Counted from the stretch's first letter, positions 1,506 to 12,686 are shown. The stretch is 12,690 nucleotides of DNA from Candidatus Hydrogenedentota bacterium (GCA_029974275.1 JARKSN010000033.1:1-12690), one strand, 5' to 3'. Notes: generated by a model not told the origin, from the sequence alone. Numbers and translations are program-made.

Positions 1506-1638
1506 GCCCTAGGCCCCTGTGCGCTCTGAAGAGCCGGCCGTGCGTTGGAGGGGGATGCCATGCGTTCTGCGGGGAAAACATATTCCGTGGAAGGAATGCG
1601 CCAGCCAAGCGGTAATAGCCGGGAACGAGGATGGCCGA

Positions 1639-3345
1639 TTGATCGAATTTGACTGTCCATATTGTGGAAAACGCTTCGGCGTAAGCGAAGAGCACGCTGG
1701 CCGGGCAGGGAAGTGTCCGTCATGCCACAGCAGCATCGAAGTGCCTGCCCCGAACGGATCAGGACGATTTGATGATCTCAGCGCCGAGCAGCGCGTCGAA
1801 CTTCTTCTTCGCGGCATCCGCGACATCAGTCTGCGCTACCGGGAGCAGCGCGAGCAATTTCGAATCCTGCACGAAAAGGCGAAAGTCCTTCACAACACCG
1901 CCACCAAGGCTCTCCAGAAAAACCAAGAATTGCGCCTCGCAAAGGCTCAGCTCGGGGAAGCGCAGGCAATGCTCGCGGCGCTGCGCCAGGACTTGACGCA
2001 GACATCCCAAGCTCTTGGAACGGCGATCGAACAACGGGACCGATTCGCCGACGAAGTCAACGAACTCCGTCAAGAAATAGAACGTCTGGAAACTCTTGCC
2101 GCCGGATCCGAAGCCGTGCGCATCGAAGCGGCGCGCGCGAAAGAGCTTGAGGCGGAAGTGGCGCGCCTGCGCGAACACGTCTCGGACGTTCGCTTGGCCA
2201 GCGGCGCCGAAGTGGACCAGCGCATCGCCGCCTTGCGCGAGGAACTGGAGGCGCTGCATTCCGAGCGCGACGTCCTCCTGTTCCGCATAGAAGCCGCTGA
2301 AACCGGTCGTGTGCAAATGGACGCCGCTTGCAGACAAGCCGACACCGCCATGCAAGACATCCGGGACGAGCTAGGCAAGATGCACGAGTTCGAGGGACGT
2401 TGCGCCGCCCTGGAGACCGAACGCCTCGCCTTGCGCGAAGAAATGCGCGAAACTGCGGCTGCCGCACAACGCATTCAGGCCGAACTCCAGGAAACGATCA
2501 AGGCCTTGGGCGCGGCGGAGGCGCAAACCGACGAATACCGCCGTTCCAGAGACCGCGCCGCCGAAGAAAACGACATGCTGCGCGCCTCGTTGACGGCGAT
2601 TGAAGAGCGTTTTCGAGAGGTCGAATACCGCGCAGGAAAGGCCGATGTCTTTGAGCAAGAACGCAACACCGCGCAACGTCTTTGCCGTGAGCTTGAGGAT
2701 CAACTGGCGCAACTCCGGGAAGGATGGGGCCAACTTGCGCTCAACTCGGACCAGGCCGCCGCGCAGGCCGCTCAAGCCTTGCTCGACGCCCAACAAGCCG
2801 CCGAACATTTAGCGAACGAAAAAGCCTGCCGGGCTCAAACAGAATCGGAACTGGCGCGCGCCGTGGAAGCGCGCGACGCGGTGCAAGCGCGTCTCGACGA
2901 AACCCGAAGTCGTCTCTCCCTTCTCGAAGAAACGGAGCGCGACGCACGCGACGCCTCCGCCCGGTTCCGAGAGTCCCAAGCGCACGTCGAACGCCTCACG
3001 ATCGAATTGGCGCAGTCGGCCCAGGCGCTTGGATCCGCCGAAGCCAAAGCGGACATTGCGACGCGGGAATTAGACAAAAAACAGGCCGAGGCGGATGAAC
3101 TTCGCGCGCGCCTCGATGCCGCATTGGCGGAGCAAACCTTCCCATGGAGAAACCGGACAGCAAGAAGCGAAGAGCAGGCGCCCAGCGAGAAAGAAACGGA
3201 AGATTGGGAAATGGAGGCCGTTCCGGAAGACGTGGAAAAAGAGCTGGAGTTTGTGCCCGAGGTGCTTGACGATGAGGCGCCCCTCAGCGACGAAATGATG
3301 AGGACCCTGTTGCGCTTCATTGCGCCTGAAGAGGAGAAACGGTAG
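1639..3345 (+). CDS. Zinc-ribbon-headed long coiled-coil protein (~568 aa), function unknown
   Basis: Probable TTG start at 1639 after RBS GAGGA (1627-1631); the ORF track extends to 1519. The N-terminus MIEFDCPYCGKRFGVSEEHAGRAGKCPSCHSSIEVP is a CxxC-x16-CxxC zinc ribbon. It is followed by ~450 aa of A/E/L/R/Q-rich heptad sequence, an acidic tail and a short terminal helix (DEMMRTLLRFIAP). No signal peptide or TM helix. Confidence 0.85.
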   Translation: MIEFDCPYCGKRFGVSEEHAGRAGKCPSCHSSIEVPAPNGSGRFDDLSAEQRVELLLRGIRDISLRYREQREQFRILHEKAKVLHNTATKALQKNQELRLAKAQLGEAQAMLAALRQDLTQTSQALGTAIEQRDRFADEVNELRQEIERLETLAAGSEAVRIEAARAKELEAEVARLREHVSDVRLASGAEVDQRIAALREELEALHSERDVLLFRIEAAETGRVQMDAACRQADTAMQDIRDELGKMHEFEGRCAALETERLALREEMRETAAAAQRIQAELQETIKALGAAEAQTDEYRRSRDRAAEENDMLRASLTAIEERFREVEYRAGKADVFEQERNTAQRLCRELEDQLAQLREGWGQLALNSDQAAAQAAQALLDAQQAAEHLANEKACRAQTESELARAVEARDAVQARLDETRSRLSLLEETERDARDASARFRESQAHVERLTIELAQSAQALGSAEAKADIATRELDKKQAEADELRARLDAALAEQTFPWRNRTARSEEQAPSEKETEDWEMEAVPEDVEKELEFVPEVLDDEAPLSDEMMRTLLRFIAPEEEKR

Positions 3346-3395: not shown

Positions 3396-4142
3396 ATGCA
3401 AAAACTCATTGTCACCTGTGAATGCGGTCAGCGAATGCAGGTTCCCCGTTCCGCCATCGGACGAACGGGAATGTGCCCAACCTGTGGACGCACCATGGCC
3501 ATTTCGGCGGACAACAGCAGCCCGGCGACCTCCTCCCAGCAGCGCGGCCGGTTCTTTTCGGCCAAGACGAGTTGGTGGCGCGGAGGCGCGGCCGCCGTCT
3601 CGCCGACGGACGACGCTAAACGAAAGTTCGGTCAAGCCGTGGACCTCTATTACGCGCGTCACTACGCCGAAGCATTGGCCATTTTCGACGATCTCCTCCG
3701 CCGTTATCCCGGAAACGCCGATATCGAAAGCGGTCGTCGCGAATGTCTCGCTTCCTTGCGACGTCCGCAACAAACCTTGGCGCTGGAGGACAAGGGGGCT
3801 TCCTCCTTCGGAAATGCTGGCGAAGAATTGAACGAGACCATGATCCGGCGCATTGTGTTGCACAAAATGCTGCACGGCTCCACCGACGCCGTCCAGCTTC
3901 AGGCTGCGGAGCTCGCGTGCAAACTGCTGGGACTGTTTGACGCCGATCGGCATGAAAAACGGACTCGTCCTGGGGATCGCGATCCACTCGCCCATCCCCA
4001 GACCGGCAACGGCGGCAACGGACGAGCGGACCGCGATCACGACGACGATGGAAACGGCGCCGCTGCACTCTCCCAGGAAAACGACAGCGACGGCGCGCTG
4101 CAGGAACGGGAGCCGCTCGATCGCACTGCGCCCGAAACATAG
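3396..4142 (+). CDS. Zinc-ribbon plus TPR-like protein (248 aa), function unknown
   Basis: RBS GAGGA before ATG. N-terminal CECGQRMQVPRSAIGRTGMCPTCG (CxC-x16-CxxC ribbon). TPR-like segment FGQAVDLYYARHYAEALAIFDDLLRRYPGNADIESGRRECL, a helical block (IRRIVLHKMLHG...QLQAAELACKLLGL) and a D/G/N-rich disordered tail. Confidence 0.8.
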   Translation: MQKLIVTCECGQRMQVPRSAIGRTGMCPTCGRTMAISADNSSPATSSQQRGRFFSAKTSWWRGGAAAVSPTDDAKRKFGQAVDLYYARHYAEALAIFDDLLRRYPGNADIESGRRECLASLRRPQQTLALEDKGASSFGNAGEELNETMIRRIVLHKMLHGSTDAVQLQAAELACKLLGLFDADRHEKRTRPGDRDPLAHPQTGNGGNGRADRDHDDDGNGAAALSQENDSDGALQEREPLDRTAPET

Positions 4143-4259: not shown

Positions 4260-5426
4260 GTGGACGAATCGCGATACCGAGTGGCGCTGGACCTAAGCTG
4301 CGTCTACGAACAGCCACGAACAGGAGTCGGCTACGCCGGCCTCCATCTCGCGCGCGCCTTGCTCGCCCGCATGTCCGGCATCGACTTCCGCCTCTTCGCC
4401 ACGCGCCCCCGGAACGTTCCTGCACGTTTGCCGGAATTGGGGCTGCCCTTTTCACGGGAAACCGTCCTTCCCTATGCGCGCCGCTTGAAACGGATGCTTT
4501 GGACCACCCTCGAATGGCCGCCGATCGAATGCTTCACCGGCAACGTTCACATCGCCCACGATCTCTTCCATCAGCTCCCCGCAACACGTCGCGCCCGCCG
4601 AATGGTGACCGTCCACGACCTCTCGTTTTTCCGTCACCCCGACATGCACACCGAAGAAACCGTTCGACAACACACGCACCTGCTCCGCCACATCGCCCGA
4701 TCAGCCCACGCCTGCGTGGCCATTTCCCACAGTTGCAAAAACGACATGATCGAATTTTTGGCGATGGACTCCGACCGCATTCACGTCGTGCCGTGCGGCG
4801 TGGAAACGGCCGATTTCGAGGACCCTCTGGATGCAACACAACTAAAGAATCTCCAAGACCGACTCCGCATCGGTCCCCGCTACTTCATCCACCTCGGAAC
4901 CATCGAACCGCGAAAGAACCTCCCCCGACTCATCGAGGCCCACGCCCATTTGTTCGCGCGCCGCCGCGATTGCCCCAAACTCCTCCTCGTGGGAAAAATC
5001 GGCTGGAAAGCGGCAACCGCCCTTCAGGCCATCCAAGACGCCGGCGCTTCCGGCCGCCTCATCCACGCCGGTTACCTAAGCCGCTTCGACGCCGTGTCGC
5101 TCTTGCGCGGAGCCGTCGCATGCGTCTACCCATCGCTCTATGAAGGATTTGGCCTCCCAGCGCTCGAAGCCATGGCCGCACGCGTTCCGCTCATCACTTC
5201 CAACGTATCCGCCTTGCCCGAGGTCGTGGGCGACACGGCCGTGCAAATATCCCCCGACAATCTCGAAGAGTTGGAAGACGCTATGGAAAGCGTACTGGAG
5301 AATCACGAGTCTACCCGCCTCCGCGTACAACGTGCACACGCGCGCGCACTCGAAATGACCTGGGCGCGACGCGCCATCCAACTGGAGGCGATTTACGATA
5401 TGGAATATAGCAATTATCGCGCTTGA
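4260..5426 (+). CDS. Glycosyltransferase family 4 (GT-B fold, MtfB/WbaZ-like)
   Basis: Motifs TGVGYAG, VTVHDLSF, HLGTIEPRKNL and YPSLYEGFGLPALEAMAARVPLITSNVSALPEVVGD (ExFG-x4-E signature). RBS GAGGAG upstream of GTG. Confidence 0.93.
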   Translation: MDESRYRVALDLSCVYEQPRTGVGYAGLHLARALLARMSGIDFRLFATRPRNVPARLPELGLPFSRETVLPYARRLKRMLWTTLEWPPIECFTGNVHIAHDLFHQLPATRRARRMVTVHDLSFFRHPDMHTEETVRQHTHLLRHIARSAHACVAISHSCKNDMIEFLAMDSDRIHVVPCGVETADFEDPLDATQLKNLQDRLRIGPRYFIHLGTIEPRKNLPRLIEAHAHLFARRRDCPKLLLVGKIGWKAATALQAIQDAGASGRLIHAGYLSRFDAVSLLRGAVACVYPSLYEGFGLPALEAMAARVPLITSNVSALPEVVGDTAVQISPDNLEELEDAMESVLENHESTRLRVQRAHARALEMTWARRAIQLEAIYDMEYSNYRA

Positions 5427-6815: not shown

Positions 6816-7083
6816 CGCCGACATGGCATCTGGAACTGCTTTTCCAAAAAGAGTATAGTAAAGACACGTTGGCTTGTCTGCCGCGACACATGTGGTTGTG
6901 GCGATCCGGGCTGTGTCGCGTATATGTTGTGTTAAGTCGGGCATTACATGGCTTCTTGGATATCTCGCCCCGGAAGCTGTCCCTTGAGGAGGCAAAGAAC
7001 GCGTGCGTTCCATTGATGCGGCCGCCCGACGGCTGTATGCTGGCGGGAATGAGAGTGGCGCGAGTGCATCGCGTGCGTGGCCA

Positions 7084-7974
7084 ATGGTTATCCGATACGA
7101 CCGATATTGGGAGGCATGGAGCTCAGCCCAACGAGTTCGGCGCGCGATCCTCGTGTCCTTCATTTTACACGGGCTCGTAGCGGGAGCAGGTTTTTTTGTC
7201 GCGCAATACCACCCCCCCAAGCCTTCCATGACCTTGTACGAAATCGAGATGATGGCGATGGGACCTGCGGGAACCCCGCCCCCAGGTCCATCGGCAACGC
7301 CCGCGCCGTCACAACCCGCGCCCCCATCGCCGCCGCCGGAAGCGCCCCAACCCAAGGAGCCTCCAAAACCGGAACCCAAACCCGAACCGAAACCGGAGCC
7401 CAAGCCAGAACCGAAACCAGAGCCGAAACCAGAACCCAAGCCGAAACCAGAGCCGGTGAAACCCAAAGACGATCCGAAACCCAAGACGCCTGTTAAAGAG
7501 AAGCCCCCTGCGAAGAACGATTCTCCCAAAGATCAGGCGAAGTCTTCTCCGAAACCAGAGCAAAAGACCGCTTCGGCGCTTACCGGACCCTCTGGGACGC
7601 AGGCAACGTCGGCCCAGCAAGGTGGCGGAGGAACGTCGGTCGACCCTTCCGTGACAGGCGTTGCCATGGGATCGCAGTTCCCTTCGGAGTTGGGATATTG
7701 GGGACGTCGTGTGCAGGTAAAGGTATCGCAGGTTTGGGCGGCCCCAGCCGGCATGCGTCTTGTTGCGGGACAAAACCAAGCCGAAGTGGCCTTCTGGGTG
7801 AGTCGTCAAGGAAACCTTTTGGGCGAACCGGAAATTATCAAGGAAGCCAGCGATCCGGACCTTGCTGCGTCGGGCGTGCAAGCCATCAAGATGAGCGCCC
7901 CCTTCCCGCCTTTGCCTCCCGACTTCCGGGAAGAGAAGGTCCAGATCGTCTATGTCTTCACCTTTGCGTCATAA
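7084..7974 (+). CDS. tolA: TolA/TonB-family energy transducer (TM anchor, Pro-rich linker, TonB/TolA C-terminal domain)
   Basis: N-terminal TM helix with S-x3-H (AILVSFILHGLVAGAGFFV), a (PKPE)n linker, and a C-domain VKVSQVWAAP...AEVAFWVSRQGNL...AIKMSAPFPPLP. Lies directly upstream of tolB. Alternative start GTG 7003 (GAGGAGG at 6986-6992). Confidence 0.8.
   Translation: MVIRYDRYWEAWSSAQRVRRAILVSFILHGLVAGAGFFVAQYHPPKPSMTLYEIEMMAMGPAGTPPPGPSATPAPSQPAPPSPPPEAPQPKEPPKPEPKPEPKPEPKPEPKPEPKPEPKPKPEPVKPKDDPKPKTPVKEKPPAKNDSPKDQAKSSPKPEQKTASALTGPSGTQATSAQQGGGGTSVDPSVTGVAMGSQFPSELGYWGRRVQVKVSQVWAAPAGMRLVAGQNQAEVAFWVSRQGNLLGEPEIIKEASDPDLAASGVQAIKMSAPFPPLPPDFREEKVQIVYVFTFAS
7363..7455 (+). repeat. Coding 12-bp degenerate tandem repeat: (PKPE)x6 followed by PKPKPEP
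   Basis: CCN AAR CCN GAR units with synonymous variation, encoding the Pro-rich periplasm-spanning linker. Confidence 0.85.
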
Positions 7975-8037
7975 CGAACCGACGGGCGTATGCCGGCGTG
8001 AACAAGCCGCAGCGCATGTGAGAGGAGAAATCTGAAG

Positions 8038-9333
8038 ATGCGAGGATTTTTTGCAGTGGTCATAATCATGGCGTGCGCCTTCTCGGCATCGGCCCAAGTG
8101 TTGCGGCTGGAGACCGTAGGATCGGCGTCGGATCAGCGAATTCCGATTGCCATTCCCGCATTTTCCGCTCCCCCGGGACAAGAGGCCTTGGGGCAAGAAC
8201 TCGCGGCAATCGTGGCCTATGATCTTGATTTCAGCGGCGTGTTCCGGGTGCTGCCGCGAGACTCCTATCCTGCCGGTTTCGCCGGCTCCCCCCGCGATCC
8301 CAGCCAGATCGATTTTGCGGCGTGGCGGGCTTCCAAGGCGGACTATTTTCTGCACGGATATGTCTACACGAGTGGCTCCACCCTTTCGTTCGAATGTCAG
8401 TTGTTCGACGTGATTGACTCGCATCGAGTCCTCGGCAAGGTGCACGAAGGCGGACAACAGGCAAAACGCCGGATAGCGCACCGCGCATCGGACGACATCC
8501 TGCTGCAAGTGGATGGAATCGAAGGCATTGCCACGTCTGCCGTGGCGTTCAGCGGCGGAAGCACCGGACGCAAGGAAATCTACATGGCCGACTACGACGG
8601 CATGAACGCGCGCCAACTCACGCACTACAACTCGATCAGCATCCTGCCCAAGATATCCCCAGACGGCGGAAAAATCGCCTACACGTCCTTCCGGCAAGGG
8701 GCTCCCTGCCTCTATGTCCTCTCCGTTGCTTCGGGATCCTCTACGTTGTTATCCAAAATGGTCGGCCTGAACATTTCCCCCTCCTGGGCGCCCGACGGCA
8801 GGACCCTCGCCATTACCCTGAGCAAAGACGCCAACCCGGAGATTTATCTCATCAACCCAGACGGAACGGGGCTTCGGCGCCTCACAAACGACAAGGCCGT
8901 CGATACGCAGCCTGCGTTCAGTCCGGACGGACGCCAGATCGCGTTTGTCAGTGATCGGTACGGCTCCGGACAGATTTGCGTAATGAACGCCGATGGCAGC
9001 GGGGTGCGGCGTCTCTCCATGCAAGGGGGGCGCTCGACCGACCCCGCTTGGTCTCCAGACGGAAAAAGCATCGCCTATGCCGTCGAAGGAGGCGGCATCC
9101 AGATATACGTGATGGACGCCAACGGAGGCAATCCACGGCAACTCACCCGAGCGGGAAACAATGAGAAACCCTCGTGGTCGGCGGATTCACGGCATGTCAT
9201 CTTCACCTCCTCCCGCAGCGGCTCGTCGTCGCTATGGGCTGTGAACATAAAGACGGGTCAAGAACGCCGCATTCCCAATTTGCAGATGGCCTGTCAAGGA
9301 CCGTCTTGGGGACCGAGGCGTTCGTCCCCGTAA
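8038..9333 (+). CDS. tolB: Tol-Pal system beta-propeller protein TolB
   Basis: Sec signal peptide (AFSASA|Q), TolB_N domain (RIPIAIPAF, IVAYDLDFSGVF, IAHRASDDI), EIYMADYDG, and PD40 repeats (SPDGGKIAY, SWAPDGRTLA, AFSPDGRQIAF, AWSPDGKSIAY, SWSADSRHVIF). RBS AGGAG. Confidence 0.93.
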   Translation: MRGFFAVVIIMACAFSASAQVLRLETVGSASDQRIPIAIPAFSAPPGQEALGQELAAIVAYDLDFSGVFRVLPRDSYPAGFAGSPRDPSQIDFAAWRASKADYFLHGYVYTSGSTLSFECQLFDVIDSHRVLGKVHEGGQQAKRRIAHRASDDILLQVDGIEGIATSAVAFSGGSTGRKEIYMADYDGMNARQLTHYNSISILPKISPDGGKIAYTSFRQGAPCLYVLSVASGSSTLLSKMVGLNISPSWAPDGRTLAITLSKDANPEIYLINPDGTGLRRLTNDKAVDTQPAFSPDGRQIAFVSDRYGSGQICVMNADGSGVRRLSMQGGRSTDPAWSPDGKSIAYAVEGGGIQIYVMDANGGNPRQLTRAGNNEKPSWSADSRHVIFTSSRSGSSSLWAVNIKTGQERRIPNLQMACQGPSWGPRRSSP

Positions 9334-9337
9334 CTGC

Positions 9338-11035
9338 GTGCGGAGGGGAAGCGACCGCGTGGTCACAAAACGAAAGAAAACGATCCCGCACAAAACACAG
9401 GGGGAAAAGGACGTTTCGTCCCTTTTCCGAATCCCGTGGCCTTGGATCGCGCTGTTCCTCATCGTTGCCCTGACGGCTGCGGCGCGCATCCGCACCCTTG
9501 ACGTGCCGTTCGAGCGCGACGAAGGCGAATATGCTTACGCGGGCCAACTCCTCCTGCAAGGCGTTCCTCCTTTTTCCGAAGCTTACAACATGAAAATGCC
9601 GGGCATTTACGCCGCCTATGCGGCGATCATGGCGGCATTCGGGCAAACGATTCGCGGCGTGCACCTGGGGCTGTTGGTCATCAACGCCGCGACGATCGCG
9701 CTGATGTTTTTGCTGGGACGCAGGGTGCGCGGCCCGGTCTGCGGCCTCGCCTCGGCGGCCGCCTATGCGGCGCTTTCCCTTAGCGAAGGGGTGATGGGAT
9801 TGTTCGCCCATGCCACCCATTTTGTCGTACTGTTTGCGGTCGCGGGACTGGTCGCGCTGTTGCTCGCCGTCGAGAAGCCGCGTGTGTGGCTGTGCGTCGC
9901 AAGCGGTCTGTTGTTCGGACTGTCGTTCCTGATGAAGCAGCACGCCGCGCCCATCATTCTCTTCGCAGGCCTATGCTTGGCATGGAGCCTGTTCCGTCAA
10001 AAAACGATTTCACGGGGACGCGCGACAGGCGCAATGGTCGCGTTTGGCGGCGCGGCGATCGCGCCATTCCTCCTCACATGTTTGTGGCTTTATGCTGCGG
10101 GCGTTTTCGATCGGTTCTGGTTCTGGACCTACGATTACGCGCGGACCTATGTTTCCCAGGTCCCCATTCGCTATGCCGCGCCCATGTTCTGGGATGGTTT
10201 TCAAAAAATCCTGAAAACAACGTGGCCGCTGTGGATTCTCGCAACGGCAGGATTATCCGCGTTGGCGTGGGACAAAGCGTCGCGATCGCAGGCGCTCTTT
10301 GTCGCGGGGTTATGGGTTGCGTCATTCCTGGCAATCTGCCCAGGATTTTATTTTCGCGGCCACTATTTCGTCACGTGGCTTCCGGCGACGGCGTTGTTGG
10401 CAGGGGTATTCTTTGCCGCAGCCCAGGACCTGCTATCCAAACGCCCGGCGCCAGCGCTTCACGCTACAGCGGTTGTGTTGGCGATAGCCGTCTCGGCATT
10501 GACGGCCTACTGGCAGCGCGCCGCACTGTTCACGGCGCCGCTGGACGATGTCTCCCGAGCCATGTACAGCGTCAATCCCTTTCCCGAATCCCTCCGGATC
10601 GCTCGCTATATTCGCGAGCGCACCTCGGAATCGGACCGCGTGGCGATCATCGGCTCCGAACCGCAGATTTGTTTCTATAGCCATCGCCGCAACGCCACGG
10701 GCTACGTATACATGTATCCATTGATGGAAGCCCAGCCCTATGCCGCCTCGATGCAGCGCGAAATGATCCGGCAAATCGAGGAGGCCAACCCCAAATTCGC
10801 CGTTTTCGTCAACGTGCCAACCTCCTGGCTCGTGCAGGAAAATTCCATACTCGATATCCTGTCATGGTCTCAAGAATATCTGGAGAGTCGTTATCAGGTG
10901 TGTGGCATGGCCGATATCGCGCCGCATGGCGAGACTACATACCTCTGGGGCGAGGAGGCGGAAACCCACCGCCCCCACTCTCCCTACTGGGTCGCGGTGC
11001 TGGAGCGCAAGGAAGGCGTCGAACCGCCGCAGTGA
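9338..11035 (+). CDS. GT-C fold membrane glycosyltransferase (ArnT / PMT_2 / GT39-like)
   Basis: First-loop ERDEGEYAY followed by MKMPGIY, about 11-13 hydrophobic TM segments, LMKQH, and GFYFRGHYF, plus a C-terminal periplasmic domain (VAIIGSEPQICFYSHRR...PKFAVFV). Alternative GTG start at 9359. Confidence 0.82.
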   Translation: MRRGSDRVVTKRKKTIPHKTQGEKDVSSLFRIPWPWIALFLIVALTAAARIRTLDVPFERDEGEYAYAGQLLLQGVPPFSEAYNMKMPGIYAAYAAIMAAFGQTIRGVHLGLLVINAATIALMFLLGRRVRGPVCGLASAAAYAALSLSEGVMGLFAHATHFVVLFAVAGLVALLLAVEKPRVWLCVASGLLFGLSFLMKQHAAPIILFAGLCLAWSLFRQKTISRGRATGAMVAFGGAAIAPFLLTCLWLYAAGVFDRFWFWTYDYARTYVSQVPIRYAAPMFWDGFQKILKTTWPLWILATAGLSALAWDKASRSQALFVAGLWVASFLAICPGFYFRGHYFVTWLPATALLAGVFFAAAQDLLSKRPAPALHATAVVLAIAVSALTAYWQRAALFTAPLDDVSRAMYSVNPFPESLRIARYIRERTSESDRVAIIGSEPQICFYSHRRNATGYVYMYPLMEAQPYAASMQREMIRQIEEANPKFAVFVNVPTSWLVQENSILDILSWSQEYLESRYQVCGMADIAPHGETTYLWGEEAETHRPHSPYWVAVLERKEGVEPPQ

Positions 11036-11056: not shown

Positions 11057-11740
11057 TTATACGAGATTGCGCTCCACGGCAAGACCGTTCTGAAACTCGG
11101 TAAACGCGTCGACGATGCTTTTGTCCTTTTGGAACAACGTCTTCACGCCCAACACCAAAGACAGCGCCCCCAGGTTGACGAGAAGGGCGGCCTCTTTCAC
11201 GGTTGTTGCCCCCTCCGTCTCGATAACTGCTCGAAGTTGACGATGGCCAAGATTGGCCTTGAGAATGCGCGTTCGATCAAACGCCTCTGGAAGAATATTC
11301 GTCCGATGCGCCCCTGGCTCTGTTGCGAGCAACAGCACGCGGTCCACATAATCCAGCGAATATTCCAGTTTCGTCATCGTCACCGAAGGGCCTATGGCCA
11401 CCCCGGGCGATATGCCGGCCTCTCGAATGCGCGTCAAGGTGCGCTGAATGTGGATATCAGTCTCCTGCTGCACCACGATCGCATCCGCCCCGGCGGCCAC
11501 AAACGCATCGATATGCCGATCCGGACGCTCTGTCAGCAAATGGACCGCGCACGGAAGCCCGCAACAGCGTTTCGCAAGCCTCACAAACGACGGCCCCAGC
11601 GTGATCACGGGCGCGTACGCCCCATCCTGAACGTTGAAATGAAGCTCGTGGCACCCCGCCGCCTCAAGCGCCTTGAATTGCTCCTCCAACCGCCCCAGGT
11701 CAGCGGCCATTACATCGGCGGCGAATCGTATTGCACTCAC
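11057..11740 (-). CDS. rpe: Ribulose-phosphate 3-epimerase-like protein with a degenerate active site (227 aa)
   Basis: True start is probably GTG at 11740, 8 nt after the SD AAGGAGA that overlaps the rbsK stop; the ORF-track extension to 12019 overlaps rbsK. It follows the Rpe pattern over its full length (AADLGRLEEQ, LHFNVQDG, ITLGP, VHLL..PD, AGAD, GVAIGP, VDRVLL..EPG, IETEG), but key residues are substituted. Confidence 0.82.
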   Translation of the reverse strand: MSAIRFAADVMAADLGRLEEQFKALEAAGCHELHFNVQDGAYAPVITLGPSFVRLAKRCCGLPCAVHLLTERPDRHIDAFVAAGADAIVVQQETDIHIQRTLTRIREAGISPGVAIGPSVTMTKLEYSLDYVDRVLLLATEPGAHRTNILPEAFDRTRILKANLGHRQLRAVIETEGATTVKEAALLVNLGALSLVLGVKTLFQKDKSIVDAFTEFQNGLAVERNLV

Positions 11741-11753
11741 GCTGTCGGTCTCC

Positions 11754-12686
11754 TTACGGCTGAGATTCGTTTTCCGCCAGAAACGCTTCCACCGCCGCCC
11801 GTGTCGGAGCGGACGGTTGCGCGCCTTCGATCGTTGCCGCGATCGCGCCCGCCGCATTGGCGAACCGCAACGTCTCGCGAATATCCAGACGCCCCCACGA
11901 AACGGCCAACGCCCCCGTAAAAGCGTCGCCCGCCGCCGTGGTATCGACGGGCGCAACGCGGAACGCCGGCGCATGATAAGCGCCCTGACTGCCTGCGTAG
12001 TAACTCCCCAGCACGCCAAGCTTCAACACGACCTCGCGCGCGCCCCGATCGCACAGCGCCTGAGCGGCTTCGCGCGCGGCATCGAGCGACGTCGTTGCCA
12101 TGCCCGTGATGGCCTGCGTCTCCGTCTCGTTGGGCGAAACGATGGCTGCCTTGCGCAGCAACGGATCAGGCAACGCTTGGGCCACCCCAGGATCAAGGAT
12201 GGACGGAACGCCGTGCGTGCGGGCCAGACCCAATGCGGCGTCGACGGCATCCAACGGAATCTCAAGCTGCACCACGACCATGTCGAGGCGGTCCATCAGG
12301 GGCTCCAACGCGGCGACGTCCTCAGGGCGAACGGCGGCATTCGCCGACGGCGTCACAATGATGCTGTTCTGTCCCTCGTCGGCCACAACGATGACCGCCG
12401 TGCCCGTCGGCTCGGAAGGATGCGTTCGCAAGAAGGCGAGATCAATGCCTTCCGCGCCCAACGCCCGGCGCTGCATGCCGCCAAACGAGTCCGCGCCGAC
12501 GCAGCCCGCAAACCAGACGTTCCCGCCAAGACGCGCCGCAGCCACTGCTTGGTTGGCCCCTTTGCCGCCCATCACGACAGCGAACGACCGGCCCAACAAA
12601 GTCTCGCCCGGGCGGGGCGTCCGGGGCGCTCGCGTCACCAAATCGACATTGGCGCTGCCTATCACCAAGACTCGGGGCGGCGACAC
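11754..12686 (-). CDS. rbsK: Ribokinase (PfkB family)
   Basis: Motifs VIGSANVDL, PRPGETL, GGKGANQAVAAARLG, GQNSIIV, VQLEIP, PNETE and DTTAAGDAF. The start is 4 nt from the window edge, so the RBS cannot be checked. Confidence 0.93.
   Translation of the reverse strand: MSPPRVLVIGSANVDLVTRAPRTPRPGETLLGRSFAVVMGGKGANQAVAAARLGGNVWFAGCVGADSFGGMQRRALGAEGIDLAFLRTHPSEPTGTAVIVVADEGQNSIIVTPSANAAVRPEDVAALEPLMDRLDMVVVQLEIPLDAVDAALGLARTHGVPSILDPGVAQALPDPLLRKAAIVSPNETETQAITGMATTSLDAAREAAQALCDRGAREVVLKLGVLGSYYAGSQGAYHAPAFRVAPVDTTAAGDAFTGALAVSWGRLDIRETLRFANAAGAIAATIEGAQPSAPTRAAVEAFLAENESQP

Follow-up and report, generated by a model that had tools for sequence, protein, structure and literature searches.

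The question raised by this locus is why an epimerase gene should persist at full length after the residues of its active site have been replaced. The gene lies on a contig of 12,690 bases (G000:C121, analysed entire and hereafter called the window) from Candidatus Hydrogenedentota bacterium, and its product, the window protein, is a relative of ribulose-phosphate 3-epimerase (Rpe) encoded on the minus strand at 11057-11740. An earlier interpretation made from the DNA alone (the sequence-only reading) took it for an Rpe pseudoenzyme or a neofunctionalised epimerase coupled to ribokinase. Our preferred answer, to which we assign a probability of roughly 0.6, is that the gene encodes a catalytically disabled pseudoenzyme, maintained by selection, of a Hydrogenedentota clade of Rpe paralogues whose name and definition ("Rpe2") are introduced in this analysis. 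The role retained by the protein is probably non-catalytic, i.e., binding, scaffolding or regulation, which is the likeliest of the readings considered.

Fold and active site of the window protein

11057..11740, minus strand: degenerate Rpe2 gene; 227 amino acids, GTG start, TAA stop at 11059-11057, PF00834 score 123.2 bits

The length of 227 amino acids is in line with the relatives, which mostly have 217-236, and bears out the earlier statement that the open reading frame is full length. A longer frame of 320 amino acids from TTG 12019 was rejected: it overlaps rbsK, the ribokinase gene upstream, and the N-termini of the orthologues give it no support. Residues are counted below from the GTG at 11740. 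The window sequence is not an assembly artefact, because two further metagenome contigs are 99% identical to it and half or more of the sampled words were recovered in each of 8 sequencing runs. Metagenomes of wastewater, activated sludge and anaerobic digesters (20 runs, 16 studies) contain near-identical DNA, and the host is an uncultured wastewater bacterium.

Membership in the Rpe family is evident from the PF00834 profile, of which positions 3-195 (of 198) match residues 7-199 of the protein with a score far above the gathering threshold of 21.1 bits. On the NCBIfam rpe equivalog model TIGR01163 the window protein reaches 143.3 bits against a cut-off of 212.6, where intact Rpe2 orthologues score 206-233 bits and the canonical Rpe of the same genome 279.2 bits. 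It likewise remains below the cut-off of the equivalog model NF007266 for AlsE (the 3-epimerase of D-allulose 6-phosphate), with 112.4 bits against 271.

An AlphaFold2 model, run with a 124-row alignment, predicts a stable, intact (β/α)8 barrel with all eight strand-helix units (predicted local distance difference test, pLDDT, 96.5; predicted template modelling score 0.92). The sole dip in confidence is at residues 141-150 (mean pLDDT 87). The top Foldseek matches of the model are solved Rpe structures, led by 1rpx_A with a template modelling (TM) score of 0.91 and a root-mean-square deviation of 1.5 Å over 224 columns, and a search of the ESM Atlas gave generic Rpe clusters only.

The motifs were placed by alignment to the solved Rpe structures 1rpx, 7b1w and 1tqj and to 60 family members. 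They read as follows, with the codons of the altered positions:

11714..11716, minus strand: D9 in A7-A8-D9-V10-M11 (APSIL in Rpe); Asp replaces the conserved Ser of the substrate site and is also present in the 71% identical relative described below
11627..11641, minus strand: H34-F-N36-V-Q38 in H34-F-N36-V-Q38-D39-G40 (HxDxMDG in Rpe); His metal ligand kept, Asp of the acid/base and metal set changed to Asn, first Met of the cushion changed to Gln
11534..11542, minus strand: H67-L-L69 in A65-V-H67-L-L69 (DVHLM in Rpe); second His kept, second Met of the cushion changed to Leu
11300..11329, minus strand: L138-A-T-E141-P-G-A-H-R-T147 (MSVNPGFGGQ in Rpe); third Met and GG(Q) phosphate loop lost, lowest model confidence (mean pLDDT 87)
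11207..11215, minus strand: E176-G-A178 in T175-E176-G-A178 (VDGG in Rpe); second acid/base Asp changed to Glu, DGG/DGN motif gone
11141..11152, minus strand: L197-G-V-K200 (AGSA in Rpe); replaces the last phosphate-binding G-S/T loop

The residue list of the sequence-only reading, with His34 and His67 kept and every motif change, is thus reproduced residue by residue in the alignments. Gly-rich loops of Rpe bind phosphate, and PGFGGQ, DGG and AGS are here EPGAHRT, EGA and LGVK. The metal ligands of Rpe are two His and two Asp, both Asp double as the acid/base pair, and three conserved Met cushion the ene-diolate, as set out in a review (PMC9978339). Both His (34, 67) are kept in the window protein, the Asp pair has become Asn36 and Glu176, and the three Met have become Gln38, Leu69 and Leu138. 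In 87 canonical and 39 intact Rpe2-type rows these columns vary little or not at all, and the substitutions are therefore not due to chance. Judged from its residues, the window protein probably no longer epimerises ribulose 5-phosphate (Ru5P). The sequence-only reading had called this activity unlikely, a sound conclusion given the losses of Asp, Met and phosphate loops and the TIGR01163 score below the cut-off.

A 3-epimerase of weak or specialised activity towards pentulose or hexulose phosphates, in which Asn36, Glu176 and other residues would substitute for the usual ones, could draw on the retained His34, His67 and Asp39 and on the Glu that also replaces Asp176 in two of 33 intact, otherwise canonical Rpe2 rows (L007, P0006). 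However, one catalytic Asp is now an amide, the three Met are gone, all three phosphate-binding elements are replaced and the protein scores below the rpe as well as the AlsE cut-off; we regard such an activity as very improbable.

For Rpe activity the genome has no need of the window gene. A canonical rpe gene, the search for which the sequence-only reading had proposed, was found on another contig (G000:C19:35049-35630; PF00834 275.5 bits, TIGR01163 279.2 bits). The host genome also carries rpiB on C61, and RpiA was not found in it.

Selection and the constrained barrel centre

The gene is under purifying selection and is not decaying. Its only close relative, P0003, is a metagenomic protein on a contig of 1,126 bases and is 71% identical to the window protein. 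Between the two genes, the proportions of non-synonymous and synonymous differences (pN and pS) are 0.187 and 0.708, and the ratio of the corresponding rates (dN/dS) is roughly 0.10. A closer comparison is provided by a contig of 4,071 bases from another study, which is 98.2% identical over the operon: its rpe2 differs at 17 bases with 3 amino-acid changes, and its rbsK at 13 bases with 1 amino-acid change. About three quarters of random changes in rpe2 would be expected to be non-synonymous (508.8/681 sites), against the 3/17 observed.

The same pattern extends to other degenerate copies. In 13 within-genus pairs from four genera dN/dS is 0.10-0.32 (a fourteenth pair was saturated), compared with 0.05-0.135 in 13 intact Rpe2 pairs from five genera. 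The constraint has therefore been relaxed about twofold in the degenerate group and is still strong. With catalytic residues lost, the frame intact and purifying selection persisting, the window protein agrees with the operational definition of a pseudoenzyme. The sequence-only reading had named close orthologues with canonical residues, combined with neutral decay of this copy, as the outcome that would speak against it. Orthologues with canonical residues do exist, at 40-52% identity; the decay is not seen. The reading as pseudoenzyme or neofunctionalised epimerase survives because there is no neutral decay despite the canonical orthologues.

Slow neutral decay, in which a stop codon has merely not yet been acquired, is for these reasons the explanation to which we give the least credence. 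It could appeal to a broken copy in one relative (G015) and to the faster evolution of the degenerate copies, whose tips measure 0.9-2.0 against 0.2-0.7 in intact ones; yet the dN/dS and the 3/17 non-synonymous changes contradict it, 26 other degenerate loci have undisrupted frames, and the predicted fold is confident. The broken copy (L048, G015:C8, about 3409-4024) consists of two tblastn pieces with a TGA inside and an N-terminal half with intact motifs. The rbsK gene upstream of it is whole, and an intact-type copy seems to have become a pseudogene here recently.

Constraint is unevenly distributed over the protein. Between the window protein and P0003, the pocket core (positions 9, 11, 34, 36, 38, 39, 67, 69, 117, 138, 174, 176 and 177) is identical at 12 of 13 positions, the former phosphate loops at 4 of 13 and the rest of the protein at 146 of 201. 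Phosphate binding has therefore been freed from constraint, and the barrel centre has not. The constrained core may be no more than structural, or it may be a metal or ligand site that has survived, formed by H34, H67, E176 and D9.

The latter alternative would make the window protein a neofunctionalised enzyme, whose metal site (H34, H67, E176, perhaps D9 and N36) has a non-phosphorylated sugar or some other small molecule as its substrate and which has given up phosphate binding. This contrast between core, loops and remainder is what would be expected of such an enzyme, the change of Ser9 to Asp is common to both proteins, and a His-His-carboxylate set remains. On the other hand, conserved core residues at strand ends can be purely structural, and the wider group of degenerate copies, treated in the next section, makes a shared new activity unlikely.

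The Rpe2 clade, its degenerate members and the ribokinase linkage

Comparisons across related genomes place the window protein in a separate, Hydrogenedentota-specific clade of Rpe paralogues. All 40 related genomes hold a canonical Rpe-like match with about 30-36% identity to the window protein, and most hold a second, closer match with 36-50% identity; weaker third copies of the Rpe family (25-32%) are present in 8 of 41 genomes. In 18 of the 19 best loci (L004-L022) the second gene, i.e., Rpe2, sits after rbsK. Three trees separate the Rpe2 clade, degenerate copies included and with the window protein inside it, from canonical Rpe with full support (Shimodaira-Hasegawa-like approximate likelihood-ratio test, SH-aLRT, 100).

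All 33 intact Rpe2 rows (L004-L022 and the database proteins P0004-P0017) keep H34, D36, M38, H67, M69 and G146-Q147, with the signature HFD(I/V)MDG, HLM, VDPGYAGQ, EVDGN and LGTS. Intact Rpe2 is closer to solved Rpe than to AlsE (174.7 vs 144.3 bits). Mean identity is 62.6% among intact Rpe2 proteins and 45.7% between these and the window protein. The window protein nevertheless carries the exterior residues of Rpe2 at T123, Y127, R134, R156, I159, L160, N163 and A185, deviates from this set at M122, D155 and A162, and ends in ...VERNLV, which fits the C-terminal ...ER.LV helix of the clade. Its stem, shared with P0003, is 0.92 changes per site long and the two tips 0.25 each, compared with a median end branch of 0.31 in the tree.

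At E <= 1e-36, a threshold that misses the weakest degenerate copies, an Rpe2-like match is found in 81 of 135 species genomes of the phylum, always exactly one per genome; it is present in 50 of 53 genomes of family f1 and in 0 of 23 of family f11. We also scanned 185,579 species genomes with a 16-row degenerate alignment. The taxonomic range obtained is a lower bound because the scan used a single peptide pattern. Hits with at least 41% identity are confined to records labelled Hydrogenedentota, Hydrogenedentes or Hydrogenedentales, to "uncultured bacterium", and to third-party records labelled Nitrospiraceae or Nitrospirales. Third-party assemblies of the last kind ("uncultured Nitrospiraceae/Nitrospirales") carry the Rpe2-rbsK loci L057, L060, L064, L065, L070, L071, L073, L076, L079 and L084. 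Several of these contigs equal family-f1 contigs in size (45452, 34648 and 33697 bases are examples), and the organism labels of these records disagree with the genome taxonomy applied here.

The full catalytic set is present in most Rpe2 members but lost in the window protein, in P0003 and in the copies of 25 other genomes examined. These comprise lower-scoring Rpe2-like genes without catalytic and phosphate residues in 15 further relatives and 10 additional copies from congeneric species. The replacements differ from copy to copy, with HFEVRDG, HIHASDG, HFTVTDG and FLHITDG among others. A search of 1.84 billion cluster representatives gave 8,517 relatives at E <= 0.001. When rows of 200-260 amino acids are counted as "degenerate" if neither the H-D-M/H-M core set nor Gly146-Gln147 is present, 49 of the best 150 cluster representatives are degenerate. 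The window gene, which the sequence-only reading had treated as a single odd gene, is instead one of a large degenerate group within the clade. One metagenomic protein of 314 amino acids (P0054) has a prepilin-type N-methylation motif and a DUF1559 start before a degenerate Rpe2-type domain; it is a genuine fusion or else a chimera produced by gene calling.

A comparison of 205 full-length rows (65 degenerate, 39 intact Rpe2-type, 87 canonical and 14 intermediate) indicates which positions the degenerate group holds in common. Asp39 is invariant in the 65 degenerate rows and His67 is present in 88%. Scaffold and exterior positions are likewise conserved: L122 in 92%, Y127 in 94%, R134 in 82%, R156 in 95%, I159 in 86%, L160 in 88% and A185 in 91%. 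The pocket positions 9, 11, 36, 38, 69, 117, 140, 146 and 147 are variable, the top residue reaching 17-38%, and position 138 is Leu in 60%. Neither His34 nor an acidic residue at 176 is conserved across the group as a whole. As there is no group-wide pocket set, His34 or acidic 176, any new activity would be private to the small window lineage. We keep such a lineage-private activity as a possibility mainly because the barrel centre stays constrained.

Whether the catalytic residues were lost once or several times is answered differently by different data. Intact and degenerate states both occur within families f1, f3 and f5, and the presence of both states at the same locus suggests orthologues with repeated loss. 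In gene trees the degenerate rows all group together (SH-aLRT 85 for 16 rows, 95 for 25 rows); the degenerate branches are long (0.9-2.0) and the 16-row tree carries a warning that long branches may have been joined. Approximately unbiased tests do not reject trees in which families are held together (f3, p = 0.105; f5, p = 0.238; f1 with P0003, p = 0.301), and the RbsK tree is poorly resolved, with 6 label changes where shuffling gives a mean of 7.1.

The gene in front of rpe2 and the junction between the two are arranged as follows:

11754..12686, minus strand: rbsK, ribokinase; 310 amino acids from GTG 12686; TIGR02152 308.7 bits (cut-off 299.65), PfkB 219.7 bits
11750..11756, minus strand: rbsK stop TAA (11756-11754) and Shine-Dalgarno sequence AAGGAG of Rpe2 (11755-11750), followed after 9 nucleotides by GTG 11740

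The Shine-Dalgarno sequence overlaps the rbsK stop codon, as stated earlier, and only 13 unassigned bases separate the rbsK stop from the Rpe2 start directly downstream on the same strand, the position typical of Rpe2. The P0003 contig has a like arrangement (GGAGGAG-TAA-C-GTG), and its 53 upstream bases show the end of rbsK. On one of the 99% identical contigs (L023) rbsK starts with the GTG corresponding to window position 12686, with GGAGG in front, and the gene upstream of it is a divergent gene for an MscS-type channel. Downstream, a PMT_2 glycosyltransferase gene converges on rpe2 at a distance of 21 bases. With a divergent gene upstream and a convergent gene downstream, rbsK and rpe2 thus form a two-gene operon, and co-transcription and translational coupling of both are a probable part of the best explanation. 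The channel gene on L023 (1569-3863, minus strand) lies beyond the window end and encodes a 764-amino-acid member of the MscS family of mechanosensitive channels; the 176 bases that separate it from the ATG frame of rbsK with 315 codons (192 to the GTG start) should hold the operon promoter.

The linkage was surveyed with one locus per genome (51 loci), where informative loci have enough upstream sequence; the P0003 contig is one of two uninformative degenerate loci.

Intact loci: 23, of which 22 informative; rbsK directly upstream on the same strand in 19
Exceptions among intact loci: histidine phosphatase gene in between (G002), rbsK 2.2 kb away (G022), none (G071)
Degenerate loci: 27, of which 25 informative; rbsK directly upstream on the same strand in 7
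Exceptions among degenerate loci: rbsK 590 bases away (G027), no rbsK in 17

These numbers bear on the idea of a dedicated non-catalytic partner of RbsK, a dead barrel that binds the kinase and tunes or stabilises it. Such a role would agree with the close translational coupling of both genes in the window as well as in P0003, with the frequency of rbsK directly upstream in both classes, and with the state of the window RbsK, which appears intact, sharing all invariant columns with 9 orthologues, and shows no acceleration (a tip of 0.42, the same as the median of the RbsK tree). But rbsK is missing from the surroundings of 17 of the 25 informative degenerate loci; a radical-SAM/SPASM gene stands directly before the degenerate gene, at a locus devoid of rbsK, in G030 and in four species belonging to one genus; and none of 14 long representatives with an Rpe domain is a PfkB-Rpe fusion, their extra domains being of the 6-phosphogluconolactonase type, CBS, HAD, Fe-ADH, RNase H and a GlpX fragment. 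The persistence of the degenerate gene without an adjoining rbsK argues against a role solely about RbsK, and we consider the specific partnership proposed by the sequence-only reading improbable. The linkage itself, which that reading proposed to look for in orthologues, holds for most intact loci and fails for most degenerate ones. A prediction of an RbsK-Rpe2 complex returned a score of 0.00, i.e., no answer, and is evidence in neither direction.

Other neighbours recur at Rpe2 loci, where the flanks vary between genomes and none of the additional genes is constant. Among the intact loci 8, and among the degenerate ones 7, have a radical-SAM/SPASM gene upstream on the same strand; in 5 intact loci and 2 degenerate ones the gene directly downstream is of the CYTH type; and a SpoIIE-type phosphatase gene is found downstream at 5 of the degenerate loci. 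The cluster may originally have read radical-SAM/SPASM - rbsK - rpe2 - CYTH. The radical-SAM/SPASM gene encodes about 370-395 amino acids with best NCBIfam hits far below the cut-offs, and the CYTH gene is CyaB-like; the loci concerned are L030 (G014), L031 (G005), L005 (G013), L040 (G008), L041 (G018), L043 (G030) and L136-L139 (genus g46). The gene between rbsK and intact rpe2 in G002 is of the His_Phos_1 type (L039, G002:C50, 3771-4391). Degenerate copies without rbsK are followed by a homologue of IF-2B/MtnA-type sugar-phosphate isomerases in G006 (L044, 2765-3829) and of anhydro-MurNAc kinase in G010 (L047, 2749-3942).

The remainder of the window holds the following genes; the region 7003-9333 (plus strand) is part of a Tol-Pal cluster, and the GC content of positions 1-1400 is 0.52 against about 0.60.

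585-965: short open reading frame with a DUF4372 match
979-1359: small PEP-CTERM protein
1519-3345: SMC-like coiled-coil protein, 608 amino acids
3396-4142: TPR protein
4260-5426: GT4 glycosyltransferase
7003-7974, plus strand: TolA-like protein with a TonB_2 C-terminus
8038-9333, plus strand: TolB (TIGR02800, 375.7 bits)
9338-11035, plus strand: PMT_2-family glycosyltransferase, immediately after TolB

The retained function and comparison with known systems

Taken together, we favour the following course of events. The ancestral Rpe2 gene would have stood directly downstream of the ribokinase gene and possessed a complete Rpe active site. In the window lineage the Asp/Met set and all phosphate loops would then have been replaced in a burst of change, of which the long stem branch may be the trace, and purifying selection would since have held the protein as a stable (β/α)8 barrel. 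Its gene would share a transcript and translational coupling with an intact rbsK, and the interconversion of Ru5P and xylulose 5-phosphate would be left to the canonical Rpe encoded on the other contig. The retained function presumably uses the barrel exterior shared by Rpe2, i.e., the helices around 122-134 and 152-166 and the C-terminal helix.

Several points weigh against a maintained, non-catalytic protein. The dN/dS of about 0.10 relative to P0003 is rough, since dS is close to saturation; without correction, pN/pS is 0.26. The conserved core, which includes D9, N36, L69 and E176, is also what a working ligand or metal site would produce, and a metal might still be bound by H34, H67 and E176. 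All that is said here on the catalysis of the window protein derives from its residues. Two short contigs match the operon, one of 151 bases from a metatranscriptome run (on 11837-11980, inside rbsK) and one of 180 bases from a run that is only guessed to be RNA (on 11725-11903, across the rbsK-rpe2 junction), and both may be DNA.

More tentatively, and with somewhat less than even confidence, the maintained pseudoenzyme in the window can be extended to the whole group: degenerate Rpe2 proteins may represent phylum-wide non-catalytic TIM barrels, derived from a ribokinase-linked epimerase, kept by selection and acting in binding or regulation via their conserved exterior. They would be the first described pseudo-Rpe family; a full-text search of the literature without supplementary files returned no description of a dead Rpe. 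The presence of both states at the same locus, together with the lack of any genome with two copies (at E <= 1e-36), implies that a shared non-catalytic role may predate the loss of catalysis.

The clade offers a natural series in which full and empty active sites occur at the same genomic position of related genomes, all under purifying selection. It allows one to ask why a metabolic (β/α)8 barrel stays after its chemistry is lost and whether this loss happened once or repeatedly, and the proteins lend themselves to direct tests, being small and modelled with confidence. There is also a practical consequence. The few named members are entered in public records as [quoted passage not shown], intact Rpe2 proteins are likewise annotated simply as ribulose-phosphate 3-epimerase, and metabolic reconstructions of Hydrogenedentota in which the degenerate proteins were included under this name would over-credit the pentose-phosphate pathway or the use of ribose.

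Among known systems, canonical Rpe (EC 5.1.3.1; PF00834, TIGR01163; structures 1RPX, 2FLI, 7B1W and 3OVP) shares with the window protein the family, the (β/α)8 fold and the length, as well as His34, His67 and the invariant Asp39-Gly40. In contrast to canonical Rpe, with which its mean identity is 31.8%, the window protein lacks Asp36, Asp176, the three Met and the GGQ, DGG and GS loops. AlsE has the same family and fold (3CT7 matches the model with a TM score of 0.91), but on the AlsE model even intact Rpe2 proteins, with 191-200 bits, remain below the cut-off, the window protein scores far lower still, and no als-type genes were seen near the window gene. Close counterparts are also the intact Rpe2 proteins, which have in common with the window protein the clade, the place directly downstream of rbsK, the exterior residues and the C-terminal helix, and differ from it by their full motifs and their higher TIGR01163 scores. 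Pseudoenzymes in general have lost catalytic residues, keep fold and frame and remain under purifying selection, and the window protein conforms to them in each of these respects.

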